From the UHGV virus genome UHGV-2031204: a DNA stretch of 64,000 nt; one strand, 5' to 3'. Positions 9,812-27,450 of the stretch are shown in pieces. This DNA is from a virus. The translations under genes were made by a program, and so were the position numbers. The notes under the pieces were generated by a model, which searched no databases, was not told where the DNA came from, and was given only the letters and a program-made list of their open reading frames with translations. Within the stretch, counting starts at the first letter, position 1, and each line of letters opens with the position of its first letter.

Positions 9812-9854
9812 ACCAACACTACAATTGTATTAAACCTTATAAGGATTAAGTAAA

Positions 9855-11702
9855 ATGGCTAAAGAGTTTATTGACAATCAAAACGACGTTGTGACTGGTG
9901 CTGCTGGTTCCGCTGCAGATCCAATTCCGTCTTTCGGTGGCGCGGGAGCTGCTACTGTGGATAATACCAATGCGGCCAACGCTTTTGGTGGGATGTCTAA
10001 AAACATCTCTACTTTCGATAAAGCTTTCGGATACATGTCTTTCGTGTCCACTGCTTCTCAGTTCACCAGCCTGATTGAGAAGATGGCGGAGAAGAATACA
10101 TACCTGCGTAACTTCCGTTGGGGTGTTATTGACGGCATCAACTCTGAAATGGGTTCTGCTGCATACGTGGCTGGTCCGTCTGGCGATAACCATAACGAAT
10201 GGCTCTACGGCATCCTGTTCTTTGAACATGGCCAGTCCATCCGTTTCTACGAAATCAACGGTAAAGAAAACTACTACACCCTGGCGCAGCTGTTCAGCCA
10301 AGAAGGTGTGATGAACAACATCACTAACCAGATTGCAACTCAGCACAACCTGCCAAGCGTACAGTTCATGGTAATGAACTGCGTACCGGAACTGGGTAAA
10401 ACCATGAACGAAGAATGGGCTAACCAGCTCATGGGCCAGATTGCACTGGGTATCTTCGGTCGTCATTCCGGCTACCTGGGCTACCTGAAAATGACCCGTT
10501 CTGATCGCTTCACCGCGCAAGTCAGCGTAGTTGAAGAAGGTTCTGTAACTGATGTTAACGGTTCTGCACAACGTGCTGACCTGATGGTTGTGGTTGACCA
10601 TACTCGCACCGGCAACAACGATAATAACCCGACGCTGTTCTCTTCTGAACGCCTCCAGAATTATCCGAGCGTTGCAGGTGTTGGTTACATCAACCTCCGC
10701 CATAAAGGTAAACCTCAGACCCTGACTAACGGTACTCAGGACCTGCGTCAGCTGGAAGCCGAAGTGGTTGTTTCCCTGATGGATTCTCAGTCCTCTGGGG
10801 CAATGGCACCTATCGAGCGTCAGCTGATTGAACTGGCCGCGTTCGCACAAATCGCCACTATCGGTGGCTGGCGTGAACGTTTCATGCAGTCGCTGAACAA
10901 AACCGATCGCCGCTTCTCCCGCGTTCTGGAGTATGTAGAATGGGGCAGCGAAAAACCTGACCTGAGCAAAATCGACGGTAACCGTGAAGTTATCGAGAAA
11001 TGCCTGGACACCTTCGCTAACCCGACTGCGGCCCTGGTGGTGAACCATCGTGCAGGTAACGGTATCGGTGGTCTGTCTACTCTCCTGAGCGAAATCGGGA
11101 TGGGTAACACCAACGCACTGTACACCCTGTTCAATATCCTGGATAACATGGCCAGCAACGGCGCGACTAAGTTCAGCACTCGCTTCAAAGCACTGCTGGG
11201 CAATGTCACCAACTTCGAGTGCAAACACGTTGTTATTGCCGGTTGCCCGACCATCTCTGGCCAGTATTTCAGCAACAGCCAGAAACGCAGCTTCCAGGAT
11301 ATGGACTTGGTTTCCGCTCTGACTAAAGTGGGTGATAACCAACGCGATGCGATCGACTACATCAGTGCACAGTCCTACTCTCACCGCTATCTGAATGCGC
11401 GTGACCAGCGTCTGTACCTGCTGAAAATGGCTGCGTCCATGTTCGGTAGCAAACAGCCGCAGGTAACGGGTGAAGCGTCTGACCTGGCGATCAATCCGCT
11501 GTTTGGTAAAGCACTGGTGGAATACATTACTGAAAACTGCAACTTCCAGGTGAATGGTGTTACCGCAGCGAACAGCCTCACTCACTCTGTGTTTGTTAAC
11601 ACGGGTAATGAGAACTTCGCGCTGTCTGGTAGCGGTCCTAACGCATTTGGTAGCGATTTCGGTATGTCCTTCGCTGCAACTGACTGGCGTCCGACTTTCT
11701 AA
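9855..11702 (+). CDS. putative phage-nucleus shell protein (chimallin-like); alternatively another very abundant protein
   Basis: 615 aa with AAGGA upstream; strong bias to high-expression codons (CTG, CGT, GGT, AAC); Gly/Ala-rich N-terminal segment. Sits directly upstream of the RNAP beta-prime N gene, as phiKZ gp54/gp55 does (recalled, not searched). Size matches known chimallins (about 600-700 aa). Confidence 0.6.
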   Translation: MAKEFIDNQNDVVTGAAGSAADPIPSFGGAGAATVDNTNAANAFGGMSKNISTFDKAFGYMSFVSTASQFTSLIEKMAEKNTYLRNFRWGVIDGINSEMGSAAYVAGPSGDNHNEWLYGILFFEHGQSIRFYEINGKENYYTLAQLFSQEGVMNNITNQIATQHNLPSVQFMVMNCVPELGKTMNEEWANQLMGQIALGIFGRHSGYLGYLKMTRSDRFTAQVSVVEEGSVTDVNGSAQRADLMVVVDHTRTGNNDNNPTLFSSERLQNYPSVAGVGYINLRHKGKPQTLTNGTQDLRQLEAEVVVSLMDSQSSGAMAPIERQLIELAAFAQIATIGGWRERFMQSLNKTDRRFSRVLEYVEWGSEKPDLSKIDGNREVIEKCLDTFANPTAALVVNHRAGNGIGGLSTLLSEIGMGNTNALYTLFNILDNMASNGATKFSTRFKALLGNVTNFECKHVVIAGCPTISGQYFSNSQKRSFQDMDLVSALTKVGDNQRDAIDYISAQSYSHRYLNARDQRLYLLKMAASMFGSKQPQVTGEASDLAINPLFGKALVEYITENCNFQVNGVTAANSLTHSVFVNTGNENFALSGSGPNAFGSDFGMSFAATDWRPTF

Positions 11703-11731
11703 TAAGTTGGTAAGTAGTAAGCAGTAGTTGA

Positions 11732-11772
11732 GGGACAGGGGAAAACCCCCTGTCCCTTCCCTCTCTTTTTTT
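11732..11772 (+). terminator. rho-independent terminator
   Basis: Stem GGGACAGGGG / CCCCTGTCCC with loop aaaa, then a T-rich run. Confidence 0.65.
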
Positions 11773-11786
11773 GTTGAGGATTCGGC

Positions 11787-13394
11787 GTGGAACATAAACT
11801 AGAATATTACGGGATTTCGGGGCGACTAATTAGTCACGACAAGATGTTACGTGACTGTATACAAGAAGCGGAGGAAAAAGGCTACAAACCACCGATTATT
11901 ATCAATGACGTTGCTGCAACGATGGATACCATCGAAGCGTCGGAGATGATTAACCAAATACTCCAAAACCGAATCGTTGATGAAACACTCAACTCGGCTC
12001 CTATTTGCAGTCTGACCTGCGAATCACCTATTACCCATCGTTATAATCTTGGGCTACGTTGCCCACATTGCGGACATGTTGTTTCTGAACATCGGATTAC
12101 GTCCGATGTCTGGTTACGCGCCCCCGATGAGATGGGTAACTTTATCAATCCACGTTTTTGGTCTCTCTTTAATGCCTTCTTTGGCTCTAAGCTGAAAAAA
12201 TTTAATCGTAACAAAGTGACGGTAGAGCGCGGGTCTGATTTACTGCTGTGGCTAATCGATCCGTACTACCATCCAGAAAAGGACGAAGGAACACGTGCTC
12301 GCGTGGTGAAAAGAATACTCGGCGAACATGGCTTCGAACGGGGAATTCGAAACTTTATCGACCACCATCGAACCGTCTTTAATATCCTTACGTCCCCGGA
12401 AGCTTGGAAGGAGATTTATCCGCCAACGAAAAATAACCGTTATGAGAGTGAGCGCGTACGCTTAGAATGGCGTGAGTTCTTTCAGGAACAATCGTTCTCA
12501 TTCTTTCCAAGACACCTTCCGATTATTTCATCAAAACTGATCGTTACGGAGGAACGTCGACAAGGTATTTTTATCGATCCGGTTTATACCAGCGCTATCG
12601 ACGCAGTAAAAAATGTGGCGTTGTTGTACACGAATGCACGTCGTATCGAACCACGATTTATTATTCGTCGCGCAATCAAAGCGAATCGACAGCTTGCGTA
12701 TTTCTATATTGACCATCGTCAGGAAGTGATGGAAGGTAAACCTGGGTTCTATCGGGCAAAACTCGGGTCAACACACGTACCGTGGGGCGGACGTGTGACT
12801 ATCTCTCCTATCTCTGAACCTCACGATGCGTTGAAAGTTATTGCGCCTTGGCGTTGGTTGGTTCCGTTGGCGAGTGTTCACATCGAGAACAAGTTAGGTC
12901 GTCGTGATTATACACCTCGACAATGTGAGCGCATTATTGCATTTGCGGCAATGCAGTATGTACCGCTGGTACATGAAATTATTAATGAGTTGATTAAAGA
13001 ATCCCCCGGCGGATTCGGCTTAATGTTGGAAGTTCTGCGTAACCCAACATTGGTTCAACTTTCTATTCAGACATTGTTCATCTCAGCGGTACTGACAGAT
13101 GTAACACAATGTTCTCTGCGTATTTCTGATCGTGTCATCAAAGCGCCTAACGCTGATTTCGATGGCGACCAGTTACAATGCAGATTGGCAATCGACCAGA
13201 TTGAAATGGAACTGGGCATGGCTTATCGCCCAGACAACGGGTTTATGTCAAGCACGAATGTGGACGAGGTTTCGAGTTGTATGATTCTCCATAACGAGAA
13301 TATCAGCAACATAAACAGTTTCTTCCAGGATACTGAAGAGGACTTGGAAGCCGGTATCGCGCTTGACTCTGAATTATTAAAATTGGCGGGGTAA
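11787..13394 (+). CDS. multisubunit RNA polymerase beta-prime-like subunit, N-terminal fragment
   Basis: 535 aa; contains NADFDGDQ (the beta-prime catalytic Mg-binding motif) and an N-terminal C-x-x-C ... CPHC zinc-finger-like cluster; GTG start after GAGGA. Confidence 0.8.
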   Translation: MEHKLEYYGISGRLISHDKMLRDCIQEAEEKGYKPPIIINDVAATMDTIEASEMINQILQNRIVDETLNSAPICSLTCESPITHRYNLGLRCPHCGHVVSEHRITSDVWLRAPDEMGNFINPRFWSLFNAFFGSKLKKFNRNKVTVERGSDLLLWLIDPYYHPEKDEGTRARVVKRILGEHGFERGIRNFIDHHRTVFNILTSPEAWKEIYPPTKNNRYESERVRLEWREFFQEQSFSFFPRHLPIISSKLIVTEERRQGIFIDPVYTSAIDAVKNVALLYTNARRIEPRFIIRRAIKANRQLAYFYIDHRQEVMEGKPGFYRAKLGSTHVPWGGRVTISPISEPHDALKVIAPWRWLVPLASVHIENKLGRRDYTPRQCERIIAFAAMQYVPLVHEIINELIKESPGGFGLMLEVLRNPTLVQLSIQTLFISAVLTDVTQCSLRISDRVIKAPNADFDGDQLQCRLAIDQIEMELGMAYRPDNGFMSSTNVDEVSSCMILHNENISNINSFFQDTEEDLEAGIALDSELLKLAG

Positions 13395-15120: not shown

Positions 15121-16252
15121 TCCGCCACCGAAACCAGTTGGCGTTAAGCGCATTTTCTCAACGGGCGATGTACATTTATTGCACCGTCGTGTACCGACGT
15201 GGCATATTGTTAACGTGCTCAAGGAAACCTTAGAACGGTTCGATAATACGATTGACGCTATTTATATAGCTGGTGATTTATTTGATGATTCCCGGCATTT
15301 GCGGCAAGAAGATTCTCAGGAAGCCATAGGGTTTTTAACTTGGTTATTGCTCTGGGCCAAACAGACGAATACTGCTATTCGTGTCTTGGAAGGAACACCC
15401 TCCCACGATCACAAACAATCGAAAATCGTCGAAGAGTTAAATCAGGCGGTGGGTGCAGATTGTTTGTATCTGGATAAGATTGGCGTGTTTTACGACGAGG
15501 CGTTAGAAGCGACAGTCGGTTGGGTCCAGGACGAGTATAAAGCCCTGGGTTCCGAATCCATTGATGCTGCCGCAACAGAACAGGAAATGGCTGAATTATT
15601 AGCCACGCGTGGTATACAGCAGATGGATTTCTGCTTTATGCATGGCTGCTTTCAGTTCCAAGTTCCCGTTGAGTCTACCCGCTTTTTCCATACGGATTTT
15701 TGGGAACCGTTAGTCAAGCATTTGATTATCATCCATCACGATCATCGTAGGAAACAATTGGGTAAGATTCGTGTACCAGGCAGCCCTGATCGCCTGGCAA
15801 TGGGTGAAGAAGAGGACAAAGGCTTTGCTATTGTCGATTTCACTCCTGATTTAGCCAGAGATTATTTCTTGGTTAATGAACGCGCTTGCCCGCAGATTAA
15901 AATTGCTGCGGAGGAGGACTATGAATCGCAGTACGCGAAATGTCTCTCTGCGCTTGAGTACATCGATACTCATCCGTCCTCAGTGATAGGACGATTGGAA
16001 ATTGAATATTACCCTGATTCTCCATTGGCGGAAGCCATCACTCGTTGGAAATCACAATATTCATTCCATATTTCAGGTACGCGTATACGTACGCCTGAAG
16101 AGGAGCAAATTCTCGCAGCCGGTTTTGCCATCGACGCAGAGGTCGAGGAAACCATCTCTGAAGAGAATGTTGAAGCGATTTTGTTAGAAGCATTAGTGCC
16201 GTTTAAATACGATGCACAAATTGTCACTGACATTATCAGGAGCATCAAATGA
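15104..16252 (+). CDS. calcineurin-like metallophosphoesterase (possible Mre11/SbcD-type nuclease)
   Basis: 382 aa; N-terminal GDVHL and AGDLFDD fit phosphoesterase motifs I and II (D-x-H, GD-x-x-D). Confidence 0.45.
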   Translation: MKRITNPPPKPVGVKRIFSTGDVHLLHRRVPTWHIVNVLKETLERFDNTIDAIYIAGDLFDDSRHLRQEDSQEAIGFLTWLLLWAKQTNTAIRVLEGTPSHDHKQSKIVEELNQAVGADCLYLDKIGVFYDEALEATVGWVQDEYKALGSESIDAAATEQEMAELLATRGIQQMDFCFMHGCFQFQVPVESTRFFHTDFWEPLVKHLIIIHHDHRRKQLGKIRVPGSPDRLAMGEEEDKGFAIVDFTPDLARDYFLVNERACPQIKIAAEEDYESQYAKCLSALEYIDTHPSSVIGRLEIEYYPDSPLAEAITRWKSQYSFHISGTRIRTPEEEQILAAGFAIDAEVEETISEENVEAILLEALVPFKYDAQIVTDIIRSIK

Positions 16253-17085
16253 CCCCAATCAGTGTTGATCGCACGTTTGGGTTTTATCAAATGTCAATTG
16301 CTACATCGTTGGCTTTTGAAGGGCTTCTCCATGAAGGAGAATATGCCGATTGGAAGGGTCCAGTCCCTATCCACAAGTATCAGGATATTTACCTGAATCT
16401 ACGGACGTTGTTCCGTAACGCGTTTTACGCGTTTGAAACGAATCGTGAACGATTAACACCTGAAGTGTTGCTGGCATCGATTGAAGAAGATATTGCTTCT
16501 ATTAACGCTACCGCGAAAGCGGTAGCGCCTTCGGTGCTATGTGTCCCCTATATCTGTACGTATAAAAGTGCGAACAGAATCTTCCCCGAAGCAGCGTTCC
16601 GTACGATTGCGGGAGGGCAGGAAAAGATGACACCTAACCAGCACCACTTTAATGCGTTAGAACATGATACGTTAAAGTTATACGGTGAAAAATACCCTGA
16701 GCAATTCAAAAGCTTTGATGTGTTTCCGAAAGGGCAGCATGACACATTGATTTTAACCCATTACCCCGCCGATCTGTTGGCCTACAAAGATTTCCCGCTG
16801 TTGAATCTGTTAGAATCACACACGGGCAAGATTAAAGGTCGGTTAGAATGGTACACGAAGCTTTACGGTAAACCCGAACAGATCCCGTTTAACAAGGCGT
16901 TTCTAACGCTATTTGGCGATGGGTATATGTTCTCCCCACTTGACAGAAAGGTTCGTAAGGTGGTGTTGAATACCGCCGAGAAATACCACTGGCGACAAGA
17001 TACGACCATGGATCGTATTTACAGTTGCTTGAAGTTGGTTAACGAGCCCTTTGTCATTGAGTTCCTTCGTAGATTGTCTCGCTAA
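16249..17085 (+). CDS. hypothetical protein (278 aa)
   Basis: ATGA overlap with the upstream gene. Confidence 0.55.
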   Translation: MTPISVDRTFGFYQMSIATSLAFEGLLHEGEYADWKGPVPIHKYQDIYLNLRTLFRNAFYAFETNRERLTPEVLLASIEEDIASINATAKAVAPSVLCVPYICTYKSANRIFPEAAFRTIAGGQEKMTPNQHHFNALEHDTLKLYGEKYPEQFKSFDVFPKGQHDTLILTHYPADLLAYKDFPLLNLLESHTGKIKGRLEWYTKLYGKPEQIPFNKAFLTLFGDGYMFSPLDRKVRKVVLNTAEKYHWRQDTTMDRIYSCLKLVNEPFVIEFLRRLSR

Positions 17086-17143: not shown

Positions 17144-17788
17144 ATGGTCAATAAAAACTTCCTTAAAGAGAAATGGCTTTACCCGCAGACTGAGCCGGAT
17201 CAACAGGGCCGTACTCGTAAACTGGGCATTGAATTGAACGAGTTCAATGGTGATGTGGAACTGATGAAATTCCACTATTCCTTTGGTAAAGGCGAAGGTC
17301 TTTATTTCACCGCAGGCTATACTGTCTGTGTTGATATCTTTGAAACCCTGCGTACGGTGATGCAGAAACCCGAAAAAGTTGTTTTCAAATGGGAAGATAC
17401 AAAAGGTAAGAAGGCACCGGTTAGCTTACACGTAGGTCGTGATGAAAATCTGACACCGTTCTTTGCACTGAGCGGTGAGATCCCAGGGGTTGGTGCGCGT
17501 CAGAAGAAATTCTATTTCACCTATCCGAAAGGTTATCGTGTTTTCCGTAATGGACAACTGGTCTCCGATCTGGAACTGGCAGAGCGTCAGCTACGCGCGT
17601 TCCTGAAAAATGCAGATGTATTCCTGGAAGATTTCCGTGACAACTACAAACCGCGTGAGTTTAATAATGCGGCTGGTGGTAGTTACGGTCGCGGCGGTTA
17701 CAATAACGGCGGCAACGGCGGCGGTTATAACAACCAATCTGCCGCAAAAGCCCCAACACCAACTAACGATTTTGACGATATTATCTAA
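17144..17788 (+). CDS. putative ssDNA-binding-like protein with Gly/Asn-rich linker and acidic C-terminal tip
   Basis: 214 aa; strongly codon-optimised; C-terminus GGSYGRGGYNNGGNGGGYNN...NDFDDII resembles the disordered linker and acidic tip of SSB proteins (E. coli SSB ends DFDDDIPF). Confidence 0.4.
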   Translation: MVNKNFLKEKWLYPQTEPDQQGRTRKLGIELNEFNGDVELMKFHYSFGKGEGLYFTAGYTVCVDIFETLRTVMQKPEKVVFKWEDTKGKKAPVSLHVGRDENLTPFFALSGEIPGVGARQKKFYFTYPKGYRVFRNGQLVSDLELAERQLRAFLKNADVFLEDFRDNYKPREFNNAAGGSYGRGGYNNGGNGGGYNNQSAAKAPTPTNDFDDII

Positions 17789-17808: not shown

Positions 17809-17836
17809 AGCCCCAGGATATCCTGGGGCTCTTTAT
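17809..17836 (+). terminator. terminator-like hairpin
   Basis: Stem AGCCCCAGGA / CCTGGGGCT with loop tat, then a weak T-tract. Confidence 0.45.
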
Positions 17837-17860
17837 CGTGTATGTGTGTAGAATACAGTC

Positions 17861-17895
17861 GAAGTTATCTGAGATAGATTTTATCTTAGTGGACG
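17861..17895 (+). promoter_or_regulatory. conserved promoter-like motif, copy 4 (TAGATTTTATCTTAGTGG)
   Basis: Lies inside the 5' end of track ORF 17838..19550, which argues for the later start at 17922. Confidence 0.45.
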
Positions 17896-17921
17896 ACTAT
17901 GTTATTCCTGGAGATTTTAAA

Positions 17922-19550
17922 ATGCGCATTGAAAAGAATCGTGACCGTTTAGTGATAAAGTACGGCGAAAAAGAGGTCGCGTTTAATGGTTTCCGAAATG
18001 GACGTAAAGACGTGAATGTGCCAGACGTACGCGATAGTTTCGGACAGATCGTAACGCACGATAAAATTATGTTCATGGAAATCGAGCGTTATTGGTCAAC
18101 TTTAACACCCGAAGAGAAAAGCGAACTGTTTTCAGTTTACGAAGAATTAGAGTTGTTAGCTAATGAACCCCCAGAAGTTATTCGTGAACACGTCCCCACG
18201 CTCGTCGCGAGAATTGCTAAATTTCATCACGCAGATAGATTCCGCCAGCTTTATCCACACGGTTCGGTGTGGATTCCTCAAAACGTCCACGAAACGTACG
18301 AAGAGATGTCGTCGAATTATCCAAAAGAGATGACGTATATCGTACAAGATTATTACGAATTGGTGATTTTGTCTTTGATGACAAAACCGTTTATTCCCGT
18401 ATTCTTGATTTTGGACGCTTTTCCTGCAACACGTGCTTCTGTTGAGTCGAAGCGCAAAAGTGTTTATAACCTGACCTACTGCATGGAACTGTTGTCCGAT
18501 ACCGAGATTGCTACACTGCCAGCCATTACAAAGTTGCGTGAGTTTTTAGTGTCGGTGATTTCGAAAGTTCAGGACGGGGGGAGTAAAGGACCCAATACTG
18601 CAAACCTTACCGTCCTGGCATCTATCTGTGGCTACGGTACGGATATGGTAGAGGAATACATCATAGCGTTCGCTGTTATCCGATTAATTGCGATGAAGTT
18701 AATCGGTGCCGAACTACCACCAGGTACGATGGTTGAAAACAACATCGTGGCGGGGATGTATTTCAATATTCGACAAGAAATTGAAACGGGCTTCGCGGGA
18801 AAAATTTCCGGTCAAAACGTGATGCTAAAAGCGAATCCTGAGAAAATCATGTTCAACGGCGAGAAGGGGAAAACTTCGTCGATTGACCTGGTTCAAGCTC
18901 GGACTAAAGCACCAATGAAGGAATTCGTTCGTACTCAAGAATTCTTTAATGACTATCGTCGTGCGGTGCGTGCTTTGAATCTCGATATTGCTCCCGCTGA
19001 TGTGAAAGTGTTGATAGATTCCATCAACATTAACCATCAATATCCTTTCTACGAACTCTACGAATGGTTGGTGGCGGCAGTGATGCACCGATTTGCAGAT
19101 CGTCGTACATACAAGGAAATCGACGCAGAAGCGTTTAAGAATGCGATGGGTATATCCCAAGCCGTTTACATCTATTACGGAATGGCTGAGATTGCACAGT
19201 TGTTAAGTTGTGAAATGATCCGGGCACCGCTAAATGGCGGGTATCCCATCGAGCCAATCGATAATGAGATTAAAATAAAAACGGATAGATATTATCCACA
19301 AGCATACCGTAAGCATCGTAATACTTACGAACAATCAACATTGAAGGATTCTCTCAGCTTGTTGGTTCGTGAACATATCGCGCCGTTCAACTTCAATCTC
19401 AGGGCAACACCGGAAGCAGCCAGAATGTTACGGTGTGGGACAGTGATGTTGGACTATTCACCTCATCCGCGACTTCAGAACATGTTAGCAGAATTTCTGT
19501 TAATTCAAAACAGAAAGAAATGCGAAGAAGTAGCATGGTTTAATCAATAA
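17922..19550 (+). CDS. hypothetical protein (542 aa)
   Basis: Track ORF trimmed to the ATG at 17922 (GGAG 8 nt upstream), placing the promoter motif and terminator outside the gene. Confidence 0.55.
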   Translation: MRIEKNRDRLVIKYGEKEVAFNGFRNGRKDVNVPDVRDSFGQIVTHDKIMFMEIERYWSTLTPEEKSELFSVYEELELLANEPPEVIREHVPTLVARIAKFHHADRFRQLYPHGSVWIPQNVHETYEEMSSNYPKEMTYIVQDYYELVILSLMTKPFIPVFLILDAFPATRASVESKRKSVYNLTYCMELLSDTEIATLPAITKLREFLVSVISKVQDGGSKGPNTANLTVLASICGYGTDMVEEYIIAFAVIRLIAMKLIGAELPPGTMVENNIVAGMYFNIRQEIETGFAGKISGQNVMLKANPEKIMFNGEKGKTSSIDLVQARTKAPMKEFVRTQEFFNDYRRAVRALNLDIAPADVKVLIDSININHQYPFYELYEWLVAAVMHRFADRRTYKEIDAEAFKNAMGISQAVYIYYGMAEIAQLLSCEMIRAPLNGGYPIEPIDNEIKIKTDRYYPQAYRKHRNTYEQSTLKDSLSLLVREHIAPFNFNLRATPEAARMLRCGTVMLDYSPHPRLQNMLAEFLLIQNRKKCEEVAWFNQ

Positions 19551-19580: not shown

Positions 19581-21287
19581 ATGGCAATGAAACTTTTGAA
19601 ACTACAAATGTATCCAGTGTACGAAATCCCAGAGCAGATTCGTCGTCGCATTGGGTTCTTTGAATCGCAGCACGCTTTGGATGAGTTAGTGGATGTGGTT
19701 GCAGAACACGGTGATAAAGCAACAGGTTCTCGGGCTTATCAAGAAGCCTTGGGGCAGATTGTGGGTTTCGACAACACCCCAACTGGCATTGAACGTCCAT
19801 TCATTAACGTGAGTGATAACGAATCGCAACCAATCCATTTTGCGTATAATTCTCGCGATACTGGTGTGTATAACTTCGTGGCGATTATTGTTTCGAACTC
19901 GTTAAATGACACACGGACTCAAGAAACACGTTATGTTGTTTCCGGGTATACGTCCCAGGCAGAACGATCCATGTTTAATCACCTGCCGGATGACATGGTT
20001 CTGTATATCAACGAAATATACGGGTTACAATGTACGTATATCACCGATGCGTTTGGTGGACGTCGTATCAACCCGGATTCCTTCCGTTTGATAGACAACT
20101 ATGTGTTGTCCAAGACATTAACCGCAGACAGTTATGTAGAGCACACCATTGACGTTATTTCTACCGCGAAAGCAGCTGATATGGTGCGTAAAGTGGTGAA
20201 AGCTGGTGAGCAGATTGAGCTGGATAACAACACTGTTATCTCTGCTAATTGCCAGCGTGCACCACAGTTGATGTCTAGTCAATTAACACGACCAGAATCT
20301 TTCGTGACAGCTATCTCCAATTCCTTCATTAATACCATGGGGATTGAAACGGAGTTGAGTGCAGTGGACAGTTTCTTCGCAGGAGATCATTCTCTTGGGG
20401 TAGAATCTGAACTTAGCCAGATCGGGGTGATGCGTAATTTCAATAGTTACGAATTGGTGAAGGCTTTTAGAACCGCCATATCCAACGCCACGTCCGATAT
20501 GACTAGCGGTTGGAACGTTGCGAACCGTGCAGCATTCAAACTGTGCGACCTGCGTAACGCGGTGATTAATCCCGAAGACGTAGATGCTGCAATTGCGCAC
20601 TCACTGGCTGTCGCAGCCCGTCGCGGTTTTGGTGAAATTGAACGCACCGATGATTGGGTAGGACGTAACAACTATTCTACTCAGGGTTCGTTGGTGGCAT
20701 TTGATTTAGCCATGTTACTGGGGCCTGTGGTCACTCGTAACCTTATCGGCGAAGTGACTTTCTTCTACGATAACCGTATGGCGGATATTGCAACACCTCC
20801 TCTGCTGCAAGTGTCAAAACACAACGTTGGGGCATTAACTGAAGACGGATTACCGGATGTGTTAGCACGTCGCTTCTTAAGTGACTTACAAGGCGTATTC
20901 TTGCAAGTGACTAAACACAACCGTATTCGTTGTAAGATGACCGTAACGTGTATCGTTGGGGTGGTTTCACGTATTGAAATCGAAATCGATGGTGAGCTGC
21001 CTGAGTATTATACTCATGCGTCGTTCATGAAAGCACGTCTGCATTGTGGTACAACGACTGACCTTCAGTACACGAACCAGTTAGCTGCAGAAACAGCGCA
21101 GCTGATGAACAAAGTGGAAGAAGGGTACCAAGAATTCAACCGTGGTCAGAACCGTTCGAATATCCTGTCGAATATTCCAACTGCCCCTGTGTCTGCACCT
21201 ACGAGCCTGGGTAGCTTCGGTAGCTTTGGTGGTGGCGATATGTCAACCTCTGCGCCAGTGTCTGGCTTTGGTGCATTCGGCGAGTAA
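19581..21287 (+). CDS. hypothetical protein with FG-motif C-terminal tail
   Basis: 568 aa; AAGGAG upstream; C-terminus ...SLGSFGSFGGGDMSTSAPVSGFGAFGE. Confidence 0.6.
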   Translation: MAMKLLKLQMYPVYEIPEQIRRRIGFFESQHALDELVDVVAEHGDKATGSRAYQEALGQIVGFDNTPTGIERPFINVSDNESQPIHFAYNSRDTGVYNFVAIIVSNSLNDTRTQETRYVVSGYTSQAERSMFNHLPDDMVLYINEIYGLQCTYITDAFGGRRINPDSFRLIDNYVLSKTLTADSYVEHTIDVISTAKAADMVRKVVKAGEQIELDNNTVISANCQRAPQLMSSQLTRPESFVTAISNSFINTMGIETELSAVDSFFAGDHSLGVESELSQIGVMRNFNSYELVKAFRTAISNATSDMTSGWNVANRAAFKLCDLRNAVINPEDVDAAIAHSLAVAARRGFGEIERTDDWVGRNNYSTQGSLVAFDLAMLLGPVVTRNLIGEVTFFYDNRMADIATPPLLQVSKHNVGALTEDGLPDVLARRFLSDLQGVFLQVTKHNRIRCKMTVTCIVGVVSRIEIEIDGELPEYYTHASFMKARLHCGTTTDLQYTNQLAAETAQLMNKVEEGYQEFNRGQNRSNILSNIPTAPVSAPTSLGSFGSFGGGDMSTSAPVSGFGAFGE

Positions 21288-21309
21288 AAGATTAATCAAG
21301 GACTCTTAA

Positions 21310-22689
21310 ATGAAAATTATTGAATTCTACAAATCGTTTCTTAAATCACAAGGATTCGATTTTGAAAACGATTTACTCACTCGTGACGGTGGTGAACCGG
21401 CAGAGTTTACGTATAACAAAGTGAAGCGCCGTTTGGCGCTTCCTACCCCAGCGATGATTAAGCGTGGCATGGAAGACGACGATGGTCGTGAATGTCAAGC
21501 ATTTCATCCACTGTGTGAATCGGTACTGGCAGGTGAATCAGGGACAATTCGTTTCCTGAAGAAATCCATTAATGCGAACCTGTTCATTCGTTCCTTTGCA
21601 TTAATCGACGCGATTCTGGAAACGGGGGCAAGTGGTAAAGCAGTACGTTCAGCTTCCTACAAGAAGTTCTTAACAGAACAGATTTGCGAAGGGATGAAAG
21701 ATCCGACGTTCGATGAGCGTTTGGTAAAATCCTGGGAAGCGGTTAAGGCGTTCGTTTACGCACAATTGGAAAAAGATAAAAAGCACAAGATCACCCAGCT
21801 TTTTATCGCATCTGATTTAGTTATCGATGGTGTGAAGTTTAACCGCGTAGCTAATTATCGGAATATGTTCGAAGAAGAATCGTTAGATGGTACCGCAATG
21901 TACTTCTCTGCGAAGCTTCAACGTAAACAAGACAAAATCATTATCCACCGTTTACTGACCACCGTGTTCGGTTGGTATCCGAGCGTAACGGGGTCTAATG
22001 ATTCGCGTCCGTATTTCGGTTGCTTAGCGCGTGGTTGGGCGCAGTACGTTGTGAATTATAACAACGTCGTTAAGGGATTGCGCGACCACACTTCTTTACG
22101 TCCGTTGGAAGATGAATGGATTTCTCAGCTGGACAATATGGATATTTACGATAACGTCATTCAGACCTTACCGTATAACACCGGCCCACGTTCTGACAGC
22201 CCTGAACGTGATACCACGGCGCATGACTTCCGTATTGATCGTGCACAGGCACCGCAGCAGATCCCACAAAAACGTGCATCGGATGCAGATAAAGCAGATA
22301 AGTCCGATCCGATGGAATTCTTCCGCGCTCGTGAACGTAACATGGCCGCGCATAGTCCTTATGGGAATTTGACGCCAGCGATGCAACGTTACGCTGAGCA
22401 GCACGGAACAACTAACCCCGCCAACGGTATGGTAAGTCGAATTTCTGTTGTGGATGCGTTTGGTGGTGAGCGCAAGGTTTCACCTTTCGGTGGTCAGAGT
22501 AACTTCGGTGTAGGGAATACTGGAGGTTCTTTGGCAAGCACCTTTGGCGGAGGGAATAATTCTTTCGGCGGGAATGTAGGGGGGACTAGCGCATTTAGCA
22601 CAAGTTCAGCATTTGCATCGAATAGCAGTTTTGGCGGGCAGCCGCAAAGCAGCTTCGGCGGATTTGCAACTTCGGCATTTACGCGTTAA
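21310..22689 (+). CDS. hypothetical protein with long FG-repeat low-complexity C-terminal tail
   Basis: 459 aa; the last ~80 aa carry at least 8 FG dipeptides (AFGG, PFGG, NFGV, TFGG, SFGG x3, GFAT) spaced by S/T/N/G/Q-rich linkers. Confidence 0.6.
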   Translation: MKIIEFYKSFLKSQGFDFENDLLTRDGGEPAEFTYNKVKRRLALPTPAMIKRGMEDDDGRECQAFHPLCESVLAGESGTIRFLKKSINANLFIRSFALIDAILETGASGKAVRSASYKKFLTEQICEGMKDPTFDERLVKSWEAVKAFVYAQLEKDKKHKITQLFIASDLVIDGVKFNRVANYRNMFEEESLDGTAMYFSAKLQRKQDKIIIHRLLTTVFGWYPSVTGSNDSRPYFGCLARGWAQYVVNYNNVVKGLRDHTSLRPLEDEWISQLDNMDIYDNVIQTLPYNTGPRSDSPERDTTAHDFRIDRAQAPQQIPQKRASDADKADKSDPMEFFRARERNMAAHSPYGNLTPAMQRYAEQHGTTNPANGMVSRISVVDAFGGERKVSPFGGQSNFGVGNTGGSLASTFGGGNNSFGGNVGGTSAFSTSSAFASNSSFGGQPQSSFGGFATSAFTR

Positions 22690-22700
22690 GTGAAGTATAA

Positions 22701-22728
22701 AAGAAGGGACCGTGTCCCTTCTTTTTTT
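22701..22728. terminator. bidirectional terminator hairpin
   Basis: Stem AAGAAGGGAC / GTCCCTTCTT with loop cgt, then T7; between convergent genes. Confidence 0.6.
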
Positions 22729-23050
22729 AATCATTACCGATGGTGCTAATAATCTCACTGACCGTTCCGACGTCGGGTACGATTAGTTGCGTGATTTCAG
22801 GGGTGAAATTCATGGGGTCTTCTAGCCCGTTTAATAGCATCATCGGATAGATAATGATATCGGCGTAACCTTTGAGTTTACAGTAGGCGTAGAAATTGTG
22901 GACCTCAGGCCAACTGTAGCGTGGGTCAACATTTTCTATTTTAGTTTTCGGGTGTTTACGCAGATAGTCTGTGTAATCGTGCATCACTTTCCATGTCGTG
23001 GTGTAAGGCGCAGGTATGAATTCTTCTAGGGTAATAAAATTGTCTAACAT
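22727..23050 (-). CDS. hypothetical protein (107 aa)
   Basis: Small minus-strand ORF between a terminator and a divergent promoter region. Confidence 0.45.
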   Translation of the reverse strand: MLDNFITLEEFIPAPYTTTWKVMHDYTDYLRKHPKTKIENVDPRYSWPEVHNFYAYCKLKGYADIIIYPMMLLNGLEDPMNFTPEITQLIVPDVGTVSEIISTIGND

Positions 23051-23113: not shown

Positions 23114-25351
23114 ATGAAAACGCCAGTAGAGCTAATGAGCAGTGTGGCTGACCGTGAGATTAATATCACCGAAGTATCAGGTGCAAGGGCATCGATGGTA
23201 GGCAACCATATGAAGTCTGCGGTCCCTATCGACAATCCTGAACCATCGCCACATTTTACAGGGGCAGATATAAACTACCACGATTTTCTGTTCAATGACG
23301 TTGTAGAAGATCCCGGTAGCATCTGCCACTATATGACCAAAGACGGTCGTCAGCGCCGCGCGACGTTTACACGTTATGGTCGTCGTGGGGATTCTAAAGC
23401 GTTGGAACATGCTATCTTCTTCCGCCGTGCAGAAATGAAGGGCGGTAAAACCATGATAGATGTGCTGGAGATTAACTTCTATACTAACCACGACAACATC
23501 TTCTCATCTGAGAAACGTGAGTCGATGAAACTGCGTAGTATTTTACGTGGCGAAACCGATCAGTTGGAAAAGGATGAAATCCTTACAACGATGTCGTGTA
23601 TGGTGGAAGGCGAGTACGCCGATAGCGTCGTGTTACCAACCGTTACGATTTCGCATCCTGATATCATCGAGGATTCTTACACCATCTCTGAGTACGCCGC
23701 CCAAAAACTCCACGGTTATGGTTTGAAAATCGTTGAAAAGACGCTACGTGAAGACGAGTTTTTACTGGATACTTACGGTTATATCGATCCGAACGGTAAT
23801 CGCGTCCCACGGTATTTCCCGGATGTGGGGGAGGCTATTCGTGACGATGGGTTGGTCATTGCATCGCGTCGTTTCGATGAGCTTTACGGTGCAATTGATG
23901 CGTCGCTTGGGGAAACCCAACACGTCTCTCCGTTCTTTGATAGTTGCGAATATGTGGATGCCGATCCCGTCCATTATAAAGCACGTCTTGCAGGCGACAA
24001 AGAACTGATGGAACGTAGCGGTACACGTATCGTCGATATCCAGGTGTGGCGTGATGAAACGTCTTGCGCGAATGGTGCTAACAATATTTCTTGTACCGAA
24101 GAGAACAAACGAGAACTGGATAAATACGCATTAGCATTGAAAGACTATTACAATGCCATCGTACGATTCTATTTCTCAATGTCCCGTGACAAAAATATTA
24201 TCTGGTCGCCGAAAGCGTGCGTGTTGTTGGAAAAAGCGTTCGCTTCTGAAACATACGAGGTCTATCACGAGTTTCGTGAAGAGATACGCGTGGTGATTGA
24301 TGAAGCAATTCGTCGTGGTGAATACGGTAAAGAAAATGTCAGTCAGCAGATTCTTTCTAAGTTGACCTCGCCAGTACAACGTGGACTCAGCGATCCCATC
24401 AACACGTATACCATTCGTATTGCTGTTCGTTATCCGATCCCGGTAACGGTGTCGTCTAAGATTACCGACCGCTCGGGTACGAAAGGGATTGTTGGGCGTG
24501 TATTGCCCGTTGAGCAGATGCCGATTAACGAATTCGGTGAACGTGTTCACGTTTTACGTTCGATGAACGCTGTAATTCGTCGCTCGACTTATGCAGCATT
24601 ATTCCACATGTATTGGTCAGCTGCGTCTGAACAGTTGAAAATGCGTCTTAAACCATTGCTGGATGAAGGACGTATCAGCGAGAGCTGGGAAATCCTGATG
24701 GATTATCTATCACGCTATAATCCAGAATGGGCCAATACACTACAGGCAACGCATCCTACGGAGGATTTACAACGCGAACTTTTCAAAGAGATTTACGATT
24801 TTACAATCCGTATTTACTTACCACATGAACTTGACGACACGCCAGTCGATATCAGTGAACGGTTGGGTGAATTTAAACCGCGTAAATCCAAACTCCTGAT
24901 TACTAATTTCGATGGTAAACAGGAATGGACAAAAAATGAGTTTTACGTAGGTGGTGTGGAAACATTACGTCTGGATAAAACAGGTCGTGAGTTTTCCAGC
25001 ATCTCGTCAATGTATCTGAATTATCTGGGTACGATAGATGCGTCTAACCAAGGCCGTGGTTCGTATCCGATAAACTATAAAACGCTAAAATGGGCTGGTC
25101 CTTCGGAAGAACGACTGTTAGCGGGTTATGGTCCAGGTAACTACGAAGAAGTTCACGACAGGGCAAATAACCCTGCGGTGCATCGTGAGATTTTAGTAGG
25201 GCTTTATCGATCTCAAACCCCGTCTAATCCGGGTCCACTGGTAGACCGGAATAAATTCCCGTTAGGGGATTCACAGATTGACAGGATGATGAAAAACATC
25301 CACAGCTGTGAAGGGTTTGAATTGGTGAAAATGAAAAGGGGCGATGAATAA
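23114..25351 (+). CDS. multisubunit RNA polymerase beta-like subunit (C-terminal region)
   Basis: 745 aa; DRSGTKGIVGRVLPVEQMP...RSMN parallels E. coli beta [20 protein letters not shown]...SRMN; AAGGAG upstream. Confidence 0.6.
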   Translation: MKTPVELMSSVADREINITEVSGARASMVGNHMKSAVPIDNPEPSPHFTGADINYHDFLFNDVVEDPGSICHYMTKDGRQRRATFTRYGRRGDSKALEHAIFFRRAEMKGGKTMIDVLEINFYTNHDNIFSSEKRESMKLRSILRGETDQLEKDEILTTMSCMVEGEYADSVVLPTVTISHPDIIEDSYTISEYAAQKLHGYGLKIVEKTLREDEFLLDTYGYIDPNGNRVPRYFPDVGEAIRDDGLVIASRRFDELYGAIDASLGETQHVSPFFDSCEYVDADPVHYKARLAGDKELMERSGTRIVDIQVWRDETSCANGANNISCTEENKRELDKYALALKDYYNAIVRFYFSMSRDKNIIWSPKACVLLEKAFASETYEVYHEFREEIRVVIDEAIRRGEYGKENVSQQILSKLTSPVQRGLSDPINTYTIRIAVRYPIPVTVSSKITDRSGTKGIVGRVLPVEQMPINEFGERVHVLRSMNAVIRRSTYAALFHMYWSAASEQLKMRLKPLLDEGRISESWEILMDYLSRYNPEWANTLQATHPTEDLQRELFKEIYDFTIRIYLPHELDDTPVDISERLGEFKPRKSKLLITNFDGKQEWTKNEFYVGGVETLRLDKTGREFSSISSMYLNYLGTIDASNQGRGSYPINYKTLKWAGPSEERLLAGYGPGNYEEVHDRANNPAVHREILVGLYRSQTPSNPGPLVDRNKFPLGDSQIDRMMKNIHSCEGFELVKMKRGDE

Positions 25352-27450
25352 TGAAGGGCACTCCAGTTCACGTGCGTGATCTGTGTAAACTGAACTCGGA
25401 TCAGGTGTGGCTATTGCGCGGCAGATATGAAGTGACGTTCGATGACGGGATAACCTTAAACATGTCAGGACGCCACATTAAAATCAGTTGGCCTTATTGG
25501 GGGCTAACACGATTTTATCCGCAGATCCCAATCAGTTCGCAAATGGCGTATAAACATGGCGACACCGCTACAGATGACGCACATCTGAAGTTTATGTCAT
25601 TGGCAGCTGTGGCAGCACGTAAAGCGGGTGTGGATTTAGCAGATACCCGCTATTTATTGCAGCAGCACGTCTATGCGGATGCGTTTAACTTATCGGTGAA
25701 AAATCTGTTGTCGTATTGTGTCACGATTGACTACGATACGATGATGGAAATTTACCAACACCGAAATTTTACGCAGATTCATCAGTGGGCACAAATGTAT
25801 CCTACTGGGTACGACGAAGAAGGTCGGGATATGATCGAAGAAGCGTATCTTCTTATCGAAGATATCTTCAAAGACCCACAACTTCGTTTAAACCCTGTGG
25901 TGATGTCGGTCTTGGATAAAACCATCAAAATGAACCAGGTTCTCCAGGCGTATATACGCGGGAAAACGTCAGAGATTGATTCTCGCGTTTATTCTAACCA
26001 GGTATGGGAAGGTTTCTTTACGGGCCTACATTCTGTAATTAGCCGTCTGAAAGAAGCGGGAGCGACGTCACGTTCTCACCTGTATAATACCGATAAAATC
26101 GCCGATGCGGAATATGCGTCACGTAAGCTACAGTTAGCAGCCAACGTGTTAATGTATTTCGAATACGACGATTGCGGTACGCATCATGTTCACCGCCACA
26201 CGTTTACAGAAAGTAAACTGGAGCGTAAGAAGTACGATGCGATGGTAGGGATGCGTTATCGTTTTGAAGGCGTGGGAGGCCCGTGGCTACGATTCGAGAA
26301 AGGGGAGTTTGAGAAAGTCTTAGGTAAACCTATTGAGTTTCGTACCGCGATGTGCTGTAAGGGGATGGCACGTCAAAGCATTTGTGCAACGTGCATGGGT
26401 GATTTGATTTATAACCTTTCGCCGGGAACGTCCCCAGGTCACTTGGCTTCAACCTCGATATCTGAAAAGGGTACGCAGGGGATTCTCTCAACGAAGCACT
26501 TGGACTTCTTACGTTATCTGCTGAATCTGGTACTGACTCCGAGAATGCGGGATTATCTTGGGGAGTATAAACACAACTCCGTAAAAGGGTTGAGTTTACG
26601 GGAGAAACCGCAGTACGGTAATTGGGATGAATACCAACTCGTTATTTCTGATGAAGTCTATTCTGAAATCAGCCAAATCGCGTATCATGACGATTTGGAA
26701 GTGATCGACGAAACGGCATTGCCGGAGATTAACGAACTGACCTTTTTGCGGTTGGATGAAGCTGGGAATGTGTTGGCTGAAGATCCCATTGACGTCCGTA
26801 TGGGGGTTTGTGGTAACTTCTCGAAAGCCTTCTTGCATTTCTTCCTGAAACAGCGCGATAACATTACCTTCCCGTCGAAGAAGCTGGTACGGATTCCCCT
26901 GAAAGGATGGAAACCGAGTTGGCCGATACTAATTTATACGAATCGGTCTGAATCTATGGCGGAGTTTGTAGCAGGGTTAGAATTGAAACTTCGTTCGGTT
27001 GCGTCTGATAAATCGGATACTTTCGAACAGTTCTCTGATGACTCAATGCGTTTGAGCAAGAAGTCGGGTAAGGTAAAACCAACGACTCTGGTTCAGATGC
27101 GCGGTGCTACGGAGAAACAATGTACGCACGCGTTATTTGATGTGTTTAAATATATCCAACGTAAGCTCGGTGGTATTCCGATGACACACATCGCGATTAT
27201 GCTGGCGATATCACGCGTTGAATCACCGACCAATCCTTTCCCGGCGGTTGGGTTTGATAGTGAAGATGCTGATGTGATGGATGGCAAACGTTTCGAGGAT
27301 CACAATACGTTGATTGCGATGCGTTCAGCTGTACCGATGTTGTTATTCGAAGGCCAACAGAAAAACCTGGACAACGTGCGTTTCTACACGTCGCGTAAAC
27401 GTCCGGCGTCGTTATACGACAATACGGTGGCCGCGACTATCATTGAGTAA
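25351..27450 (+). CDS. possible RNA polymerase beta-prime-like subunit, C-terminal part
   Basis: 699 aa; TAATG overlap with the beta-like gene; Cys cluster CCKG...CATC and GTQGILSTKHLD weakly resembling the beta-prime bridge-helix motif SGYLTRRLVD. Weak evidence. Confidence 0.4.
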   Translation: MKGTPVHVRDLCKLNSDQVWLLRGRYEVTFDDGITLNMSGRHIKISWPYWGLTRFYPQIPISSQMAYKHGDTATDDAHLKFMSLAAVAARKAGVDLADTRYLLQQHVYADAFNLSVKNLLSYCVTIDYDTMMEIYQHRNFTQIHQWAQMYPTGYDEEGRDMIEEAYLLIEDIFKDPQLRLNPVVMSVLDKTIKMNQVLQAYIRGKTSEIDSRVYSNQVWEGFFTGLHSVISRLKEAGATSRSHLYNTDKIADAEYASRKLQLAANVLMYFEYDDCGTHHVHRHTFTESKLERKKYDAMVGMRYRFEGVGGPWLRFEKGEFEKVLGKPIEFRTAMCCKGMARQSICATCMGDLIYNLSPGTSPGHLASTSISEKGTQGILSTKHLDFLRYLLNLVLTPRMRDYLGEYKHNSVKGLSLREKPQYGNWDEYQLVISDEVYSEISQIAYHDDLEVIDETALPEINELTFLRLDEAGNVLAEDPIDVRMGVCGNFSKAFLHFFLKQRDNITFPSKKLVRIPLKGWKPSWPILIYTNRSESMAEFVAGLELKLRSVASDKSDTFEQFSDDSMRLSKKSGKVKPTTLVQMRGATEKQCTHALFDVFKYIQRKLGGIPMTHIAIMLAISRVESPTNPFPAVGFDSEDADVMDGKRFEDHNTLIAMRSAVPMLLFEGQQKNLDNVRFYTSRKRPASLYDNTVAATIIE

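Follow-up and report, generated by a model that had tools for sequence, protein, structure and literature searches.

Co-varying hydrophobic-glycine tails on the predicted importer PicA/Imp1, a gp70-family protein and chimallin of a nucleus-forming phage

Shell-associated proteins of phage nuclei and their counterparts in the window

PicA/Imp1 (gp69 of phage phiKZ, gp63 of PhiPA3) is essential for the selective uptake of proteins by the phage nucleus and forms a punctum on the nuclear shell; the punctum and the import role have been established for the phiKZ, PhiPA3 and Goslar orthologs, cargo is selected via surfaces of the folded protein, and the gene belongs to the core of chimallin-encoding phages. 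In PhiPA3, gp61 (ChmC), gp63 (PicA) and gp64 are all located at the nuclear shell, are expressed early and are missing from virion proteomes, and two of them, gp63 and gp64, co-purify with ChmB; for the family of gp64 (gp70 in phiKZ), likewise a core protein, reviews up to June 2026 give neither a function nor a name. Here we analyze a stretch of 64,000 nucleotides of the virus genome UHGV-2031204 (hereinafter, the window), which belongs to a chimallivirus, that is, a nucleus-forming jumbo phage of the Chimalliviridae, and encodes counterparts of PicA/Imp1 (protein A), of gp70/gp64 (protein B) and of chimallin (ChmA). All three carry tails with hydrophobic-glycine motifs, of the phenylalanine-glycine (FG) type in this phage, and in related genomes the type of the motif switches jointly in the three proteins.

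Protein A matched the PHROG profile phrog_3141 with E=1.5e-127 over amino acids (aa) 1-536, and the same profile is matched by phiKZ gp69 (2.7e-179), PhiPA3 gp63 (4.2e-170), RAY gp244 (7.8e-171) and Goslar gp174 (1.2e-46). The protein is of the same size as PicA/Imp1, and its gene occupies the syntenic slot between the gp68-like and gp70-like genes. Direct comparisons with the Pseudomonas phage proteins are weak: a BLASTP search against PhiPA3 gp63 yielded E=0.014, and an hhalign comparison with phiKZ gp69 a probability of 2.4%, yet with an alignment that is collinear across 426 columns. Because of the shared profile and the synteny, we assign A, on sequence grounds, as the ortholog of PicA/Imp1, the chimallivirus protein importer. 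A was modelled by AlphaFold2 with a mean predicted local distance difference test (pLDDT) score of 80.6 and a folded body at aa 1-530, and had no sequence match among solved structures. Published accounts of PicA/Imp1 describe the cargo-selecting folded surfaces and no disordered tail, whereas A ends in a hydrophobic-glycine tail.

Protein B matched phrog_3520 (E=3.3e-124), as do phiKZ gp70, Goslar gp173 and RAY gp245, and its BLASTP match to PhiPA3 gp64 (1e-18) spans the homologous N-terminal ~290 aa. The gene is the last one before those for the β subunits of nvRNAP (non-virion RNA polymerase), as in the relatives, and we assign B, by the same kind of evidence, as the ortholog of phiKZ gp70 and PhiPA3 gp64. 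The body (aa 1-288; pLDDT >90) adopts a predicted fold without a close solved relative, and B had no sequence match to solved structures. A profile search against 1.84 billion representatives retrieved 512 clusters at E<=1e-10, so that the family comprises at least 512 clusters at 50% identity; in the alignment of these clusters, conservation is restricted to the first ~300 residues. The likeness of B to phiKZ gp70 and PhiPA3 gp64 extends to a long low-complexity C-terminus, which is present in all members inspected, although the gp70 tails of the Pseudomonas phages and of RAY are M/Q/P-rich, with MG and PGMM motifs, whereas that of B is G/S/N-rich with FG.

The gene for chimallin, the major nuclear-shell protein, lies between a minus-strand head gene and a gene similar to that for the nvRNAP protein gp55, as phiKZ gp54 does. 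Chimallins of this group are highly diverged: Laughlin et al. identified SPN3US gp244 as a diverged chimallin, and the ChmA proteins of the SPN3US-type clade are reported to be only ~10% identical to the chimallin of 201phi2-1. Pfam searches at E<=0.01 detected no domain in ChmA of the window, SPN3US or CR5, and a search of PDB sequences with the window ChmA, either as a single sequence or as an 8-sequence profile, retrieved none; the ChmA orthologs in loci L022 and L029 have a precomputed hit to PF25677 Chimallin (Chimallin_Phikzvirus). The region has a G+C content of 0.50, compared with ~0.45 elsewhere, which is consistent with a distinct codon usage of a very highly expressed gene. A 649-aa open reading frame (ORF) antisense to the entire gene (9846-11795, minus strand) is probably spurious.

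The nearest cultured relatives of the phage are the Erwinia phages phiEaH2 and Asesino, for the latter of which a phage nucleus was described in a 2026 review. The best nucleotide similarity to the window, with phiEaH2, is only ~77%, and proteins A and B share 62-72% identity with their counterparts in phiEaH2 and Asesino and 56-63% with those in SPN3US. Because INPHARED (August 2025) contains nothing above 77% nucleotide identity to the window, this phage is uncultured and related to the Erskinevirus group. Across the PicA region, the window is 99% identical to the 220.8-kb IMG/VR contig IMGVR_UViG_3300045988_113438, and near-identical proteins are widespread in Logan and ENA assemblies (P0001, with 121 member sequences).

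FG tails and their joint variation with chimallin

The C-terminus of A (...SLGSFGSFGGGDMSTSAPVSGFGAFGE, just as quoted in the first-pass annotation, which was made from the sequence alone) contains four FG dipeptides in its last 25 aa, with all four tail phenylalanines followed by glycine; composition-preserving shuffles of the last 45 aa contain 0.7 FG on average (p=3e-4). The same annotation attributed to B a low-complexity FG tail of about 80 aa, which is indeed present, with at least eight FG, which overstates the count: seven (at residues 384, 393, 399, 412, 419, 441 and 449) fall within the last ~76 aa, out of nine in the whole protein, and four further phenylalanines of the tail are not followed by glycine. 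Shuffling of the last 90 aa of B yields 2.4 FG on average, compared with the seven in the tail (p=0.002). The last 80 aa consist of G/S/T/N/Q/A to 70%, with 6% charged residues and FG spacings of 6-22 residues, and the tail segment has the minimum sequence entropy among all ORFs of the window. In AlphaFold2 models built from family alignments, pLDDT drops below 50 for aa 535-568 of A and aa 385-459 of B, directly adjoining the confident folded bodies. Thus, composition and predicted disorder both bear out the description of these C-termini as disordered FG tails.

The FG repetition exists at the protein level and not at the DNA level. In the DNA encoding the tail of A (first codon at 21180), Tandem Repeats Finder reports only a 9-nucleotide array of 2.3 copies; the tail of B contains no DNA tandem repeat, phenylalanine and glycine codons are mixed in both, and the matches shared between the two tail-encoding sequences span 14-22 nucleotides, which is the level of the motif only. 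DNA slippage and gene conversion are thereby ruled out as sources of the repeats.

In a scan of every ORF in the window for FG density, B and A came out on top, followed by chimallin (9855-11702). The other FG-dense candidate, an ORF antisense to an internal-head-protein gene, is likely spurious, so that FG-dense termini in the window are limited to ChmA, PicA and the gp70-family protein. The flexible N-terminal tail of the window ChmA contains PSFGG and NAFGG and is followed, from aa 54, by the motif FDKAFGY, which resembles the N-terminal segment (NTS) of chimallin and whose invariant form is FDxAF(G)W. PSFGG aligns with APLGG of SPN3US and phiEaH2; the matching place in the N-tail reads TAPLGGLGN in SPN3US, QAPLGG...SSLGN in phiEaH2 and SGFSVG in CR5 and Phobos. 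More generally, the motif type found on PicA and gp70 of a given genome also occurs, in one to three copies, in its chimallin tails.

Low-complexity G/S/N-rich tails are present on all homologs retrieved from a large protein database, 43/43 for B and 34/34 for A, with the hydrophobic residue varying by clade, and the PicA proteins of the enterobacterial relatives end in a hydrophobic-glycine tail of 25-55 aa. FG is retained only in relatives of at least about 80% identity (P0001, P0002, P0050-52, L021, L031-33); among these, P0001 and P0050-51 are 97-99%, and P0002 and P0052 81-85%, identical to the window, and all are of the FG type. In phiEaH2, Asesino and SPN3US, the tails carry GGLGGGLGG or LLGG (LG type), and in the clade of Caitlin, ChrisDB and Huxley, GNS(L/I)L(D/G) (SLL type); in CR5, Phobos and Derbicus, the gp70 homolog carries repeated NPF, and PicA carries GFS or GFxL. 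The tails of one metagenomic lineage contain SLFG and GLFG, and the motifs of distant relatives include NPF, LFG, MFG and GFG. The conservation in homologs that the first-pass annotation had proposed as a check therefore holds for the tails, which are always present in the enterobacterial clade, but not for FG itself, which below about 80% identity gives way to LG, SLL, NPF, LFG or MFG. Over short distances, the motif is retained as the spacers drift: between B and a relative of 85% identity, the bodies are 86% and the tails 37.5% identical while the number of FG goes from 7 to 9, and between A and a relative of 81% identity, the bodies are 83% and the tails 56% identical while FG goes from 4 to 5.

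Across 147 representatives of the gp70 family, tails are P/Q/M-rich, G/L-rich, dominated by YG (16/147), built of R/D repeats or of the FG type, and the C-terminal region is low-complexity or disordered in every representative inspected, with highly variable composition. At least three FG were found in 11/147, and FG-type tails recur independently in other lineages of the family, in part as tandem repeats (SNMFGAPQQA x5 in P0089, STGFG x5 in P0197, SMFGNN x5 in P0088, and NNPFGNS in P0090).

A separate observation concerns the distant family members P0094, P0110 and P0113, where long Arg/Asp dipeptide repeats (RDRDRD...; 56-71% charged) replace the hydrophobic-glycine tail and are reminiscent of the RS/RD-type domains in eukaryotic RNA-processing proteins.

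The motif type switches jointly in the PicA tail, the gp70 tail and the chimallin tails. The window, L021 and L032 have 2-3 FG in the ChmA N-tail, 4-5 in PicA and 7-9 in gp70; phiEaH2, L038, SPN3US and L025 have, in the same three places, 2, 4-7 and 8-10 LG. To quantify the co-variation, 3-mers containing a hydrophobic residue that are shared between tails of the same genome were compared with those shared between different genomes, with permutation of the labels, for 15 genomes and for 11 clade representatives. Sharing within a genome exceeded that between genomes for PicA and gp70 tails (p=0.0014 with 15 genomes, 0.003 with 11 representatives), for the ChmA N-tail and the PicA tail (p=5e-5 and 0.002) and for the ChmA C-tail and the gp70 tail (p=0.03 and 0.035). 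The tail of ChmC is a useful negative control because it is equally low-complexity and is encoded in the same operon; it showed no 3-mer co-variation with either the PicA or the gp70 tail in the 15 genomes or the 11 representatives. Leucine fractions of the PicA and gp70 tails are correlated with a Spearman rho of 0.80 (p=3.5e-5), and phenylalanine fractions with a rho of 0.52 (p=0.02); the phenylalanine fraction of the folded bodies is constant, without an F/L shift.

Two additional FG-type gp70 lineages came from the family-wide search. In L029, where gp70 has MFG repeats, PicA has an F-type tail, SGLFGGGTDNLFS, and the C-tail of ChmA is of the FG type, NSGFGTFGVQSGLTF; in L030, where gp70 has GFG repeats, PicA carries NNAFGQQ...SNRFNFGV and gp70 ends in NSRFGF. 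In some genomes even the C-terminal tips are nearly identical: LGGTSSFNF in ChmA, LGGGSDSFNF in PicA and GGNGGFSF in gp70 of L023 and L041; HFTF, PFSF and NFTF in the same proteins of L046; TFNY in PicA and SFNY in gp70 of L028; and DLGLL in PicA and GLGLL in gp70 of PhiPA3 (L001). The present analysis shows which families the genes belong to, that the tails are predicted to be disordered, that the motif is enriched and that it co-varies.

Possible roles of the tails

Without a shared interaction, it is difficult to account for a hydrophobic residue that changes in a correlated manner in three proteins while ChmC does not follow. From this we infer binding by the tails, and give roughly an even chance to the proposal that, at the chimallin lattice, PicA and the gp70-family protein are tethered or clustered by them. 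The tails would represent a fast-evolving sticker-and-spacer system, in which short hydrophobic-glycine motifs embedded in uncharged G/S/N/T/Q spacers would bind multivalently, each contact being weak and hydrophobic, to one another, to the flexible chimallin tails or to the grooves that take chimallin tail segments; as the outcome, PicA and the gp70-family protein would be clustered on the lattice where import occurs. In the lattice of the 201phi2-1 chimallin, tail segments (NTS and the C-terminal CTS1 and CTS2) dock into neighbouring protomers. The tails described here resemble this arrangement in that short hydrophobic segments of the same motif type are borne on flexible tails, with near-identical C-termini in some genomes, which suggests that the latter may mimic the C-terminal docking segment of chimallin. 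They differ in that most of the shared motifs are located upstream of the NTS, in the portion of the N-tail that was not resolved in 201phi2-1 and is not needed there for assembly, and in that docking of accessory tails is only proposed. Because the N-tail (residues 1-47) of 201phi2-1 chimallin is dispensable for assembly, it could be free for other contacts.

Several observations weigh against tethering at the lattice. The signal in the ChmA N-tail consists of just one to three motifs per protein, and in the window the three C-terminal tips are mutually different (...DWRPTF in ChmA, ...GAFGE in PicA and ...SAFTR in gp70). The permutation tests ignore phylogeny, with only about 4-6 independent motif switches, and a scan of IMG/VR for more genomes gave 18 loci, mostly from phages already included, which limits the statistics. 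In phiKZ the low-complexity tail of PicA is weak, in Goslar and RAY it is missing, and since PicA is nonetheless associated with the shell in those phages, the tail is not the only anchor. Furthermore, the list of nuclear (lumenal) proteins of phiKZ includes gp70, which failed to co-purify with Imp1 from Escherichia coli. Finally, given the P/Q/M, YG and R/D tails in the wider gp70 family, a disordered cohesive tail of any kind may be the general requirement.

The tails might alternatively be neutral, or low-complexity appendages of a generic kind (flexible linkers, entropic spacers or solubility tags, for example), with the shared motifs reflecting compositional drift in each genome. This would fit tails that evolve far faster than the bodies, the enormous variation of composition across the gp70 family, the tail-less PicA of some phages and the deletion of the 201phi2-1 chimallin N-tail without effect on assembly. 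We nevertheless consider it unlikely: phenylalanine followed by glycine is far more common than the composition predicts, the number of motifs is kept as the spacers change, the ChmC tail from the same operon, although low-complexity, does not co-vary, no F/L shift is seen in the bodies, neither a repeat at the DNA level nor gene conversion is present to spread the motif, and the family representatives inspected have a low-complexity or disordered C-terminal region, though of widely varying composition. Gly-rich low-complexity segments are common in phage structural proteins, and virion proteins with Gly-rich linkers and no link to the nucleus were the case that, according to the first-pass annotation, would speak against its guess of a connection to the phage nucleus. 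The guess was borne out by the membership of A in the PicA/Imp1 family and of B in the gp70/gp64 family, the PhiPA3 member of which is at the shell and absent from virions. With orthologs that are early, shell-localised and not found in virion proteomes, genes that belong to the chimallin and nvRNAP early block, and PHROGs that have no structural annotation, virion structural proteins are barely conceivable here.

Comparison with FG-nucleoporins, which the first-pass annotation invoked, yields a mixed picture. The likeness consists in predicted disorder, repeated FG, uncharged polar spacers and a motif that is kept while spacers drift, on proteins whose orthologs sit at the selective transport site of a DNA-containing compartment. 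The differences are that the tails are far shorter here (4-9 FG compared with tens), that the aromatic residue is swappable for Leu or Met in close relatives, and that there is no homology and no known transport receptor, the wall being a protein lattice rather than a membrane with a pore scaffold; Pfam families, the nucleoporin FG models among them, gave no match even at E<=10. The nucleoporin-like reading is therefore upheld as regards disorder, FG enrichment and polar low-charge spacers, and fails as regards conservation of FG in orthologs, homology to nucleoporins and the presence of a tail on PicA of Goslar and RAY. The annotation knew of no described phage FG-repeat system, and we found none either: the literature searched, with subscription-only papers outside the search, contains no description of FG repeats in the phage nucleus or of a likeness between chimallin and nucleoporins, and the disordered tails of PicA and gp70-family proteins are not mentioned in the papers on PicA, Imp proteins and the interactome or in the reviews, where only the tail of ChmC is described. 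What is new are the tails and their three-way co-variation with chimallin; the PicA/Imp1 and gp70/gp64 families themselves are already known.

The most far-reaching version of this comparison is a convergent, membrane-free analogue of the nuclear pore gate, in which the PicA, gp70-family and chimallin tails would form a cohesive hydrophobic-glycine (FG) meshwork in the import channel that excludes most proteins and passes PicA-licensed cargo, with the sticker (F, L or M) co-evolving in the three components. Folded proteins do not fit through the pores of the chimallin lattice, so that there must be a dedicated gate, and import takes place at a discrete punctum with PicA; the tail of B is similar in composition to cohesive GLFG/SxFG domains (uncharged, G/S/N/T/Q-rich, FG 6-22 aa apart and predicted to be disordered), the motif is retained as spacers drift, and tandem FG repeats recur independently in the gp70 family (P0089, P0197 and P0088). 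Still, four and seven FG per chain fall near the bottom of the range seen in nucleoporins, close relatives have LG or SLL in place of FG, tails of the P/Q/M, YG or R/D kind are found further afield, and PicA has no tail in Goslar and RAY. Moreover, a transport-receptor analogue is not known, nor are a pore structure and its stoichiometry, cargo is reportedly selected via the folded surfaces of PicA and not via a receptor-FG cycle, and there is no nucleoporin homology; we therefore regard such a gate as quite improbable. Similarly low, and only marginally higher, is the likelihood we assign to an RNA or transcription condensate, in which the gp70-family protein, whose gene lies inside the nvRNAP gene block, would co-condense through its tail with ChmC, nvRNAP and mRNA at export hubs rather than attach to the shell. 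ChmC/Imp6 is encoded in the same gene block, is associated with the shell and has at its C-terminus a disordered low-complexity tail that has been shown to act in condensation (RNA condensates); this tail differs in its composition (N/G/Y/R-rich, with a tip that is acidic) and shows no co-variation with the tails of PicA, gp70 and chimallin.

Gene block, other features of the window and implications

The order of genes ChmC, gp68, PicA, gp70 and nvRNAP β/β′ is common to the window, phiKZ, PhiPA3, Goslar, RAY and seven enterobacterial phages, and the order of the block in the window is that of phiKZ gp66-74, PhiPA3 gp60-67 and their equivalents in Goslar and RAY (Table 1). The phiKZ gp68 protein has been assigned to the nvRNAP in the literature. 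Directly 3′ of the gp70-family gene, a terminator-like hairpin ends the ChmC/gp68/PicA/gp70 block; it was missed by a simple scan for the terminator consensus and confirmed by folding. Directly after the ChmC gene, between it and the gp68-like gene (17809-17830), there is another hairpin, strong and rich in G+C, with a 9-bp stem and a T-rich stretch behind it, which may attenuate transcription, raising the expression of ChmC over the downstream genes.

Table 1. Coordinates of chimallin, the ChmC-to-nvRNAP gene block and their tails in the window
Feature	Coordinates	Strand	Basis
Chimallin (ChmA), major nuclear-shell protein	9855..11702	+	51% identity to SPN3US RefSeq gp244; synteny with phiKZ gp54
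ChmA flexible N-terminal tail, aa 1-53, PSFGG and NAFGG	9855-10013	+	Sequence ...PIPSFGGAGAATVDNTNAANAFGG
ChmA C-terminal tail, aa 593-615	11631-11699	+	Sequence SGPNAFGSDFGMSFAATDWRPTF; ends ...GPNAFGSDFGMSFAATDWRPTF
phiKZ gp66-like gene	16249-17085		Synteny
ChmC/Imp6 ortholog, RNA-binding, binds Imp1; first gene of the block	17144..17788	+	phrog_3284, common to phiKZ gp67; function from literature
phiKZ gp68-like nvRNAP subunit	17838..19550	+	BLASTP to phiKZ gp68, E=3e-11 over ~400 aa; phrog_3209; synteny
PicA/Imp1 ortholog (A), 568 aa	19581..21287	+	phrog_3141, synteny
PicA/Imp1 disordered FG tail, aa 534-568, 4 FG (SFGSFG ... GFGAFGE)	21180..21284	+	pLDDT <50 for 535-568
gp70-family protein (B), conserved N-terminal domain, aa 1-288	21310..22173	+	phrog_3520
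gp70-family protein (B), disordered C-terminal region, aa 289-459	22174..22686	+	pLDDT <50 for 385-459
gp70-family FG tail proper, aa 380-459, 7 FG	22447-22686	+	Sequence, composition
Intrinsic-terminator-like hairpin, 12-bp stem followed by T-run	22699..22731	+	Predicted fold, dG -19.0 kcal/mol
Small convergent gene facing the hairpin	22727-23050	-	ORF list
nvRNAP β and β′	23114-25351, 25351-27450		Conserved gene order

In ChmC, a domain that binds nucleic acids is combined with a disordered linker rich in G/N/Q/Y and with a conserved C-terminal tip of acidic-hydrophobic character, which reads NDFDDII in the window (17144-17788), GFDDEIPNF in PhiPA3, DFADDLPF in RAY, AFDEDMPSF in phiKZ and YDDDDLPF in L030 (loci compared: L001 2881-3639, L003 2098-2868, L004 7160-7900 and L030 4520-5200). 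The tail of the bacterial single-stranded DNA-binding protein (SSB) ends in ...DFDDDIPF and docks partner proteins; we take the architecture and the tip of ChmC to resemble those of SSB. The tip could be the element that binds Imp1 or a mimic of the host SSB tip; SSB is not mentioned in the paper on ChmC.

Downstream of nvRNAP β′, the gene at the helicase position encodes 910-916 aa in L022 (17932-20664) and L026 (17903-20653), with hits to LAGLIDADG and Hint domains, compared with ~568 aa in the other relatives fetched, which indicates the insertion of an intein or homing endonuclease in some lineages. Elsewhere in the window, two adjacent genes (47612-48883 and 48966-50231) encode paralogous internal head proteins (phrog_2497), each with an acidic E/D/A-rich low-complexity segment near the N-terminus, and the DNA polymerase (6040-8352; phrog_2927) ends in a strongly acidic tail, ...DDEEDEDEEEVFDDE.

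The route of proteins across the chimallin shell is the main open question on the phage nucleus. That hydrophobic-glycine tails may link the importer, a second conserved shell protein and chimallin is a concrete hypothesis that is cheap to test, and the natural swaps of F, L and M in the motif among related phages are ready-made specificity variants. The tails also offer the first functional handle on the large gp70/gp64 family. If it is true that they form a selective phase, this would be a striking convergence with the eukaryotic nuclear pore.

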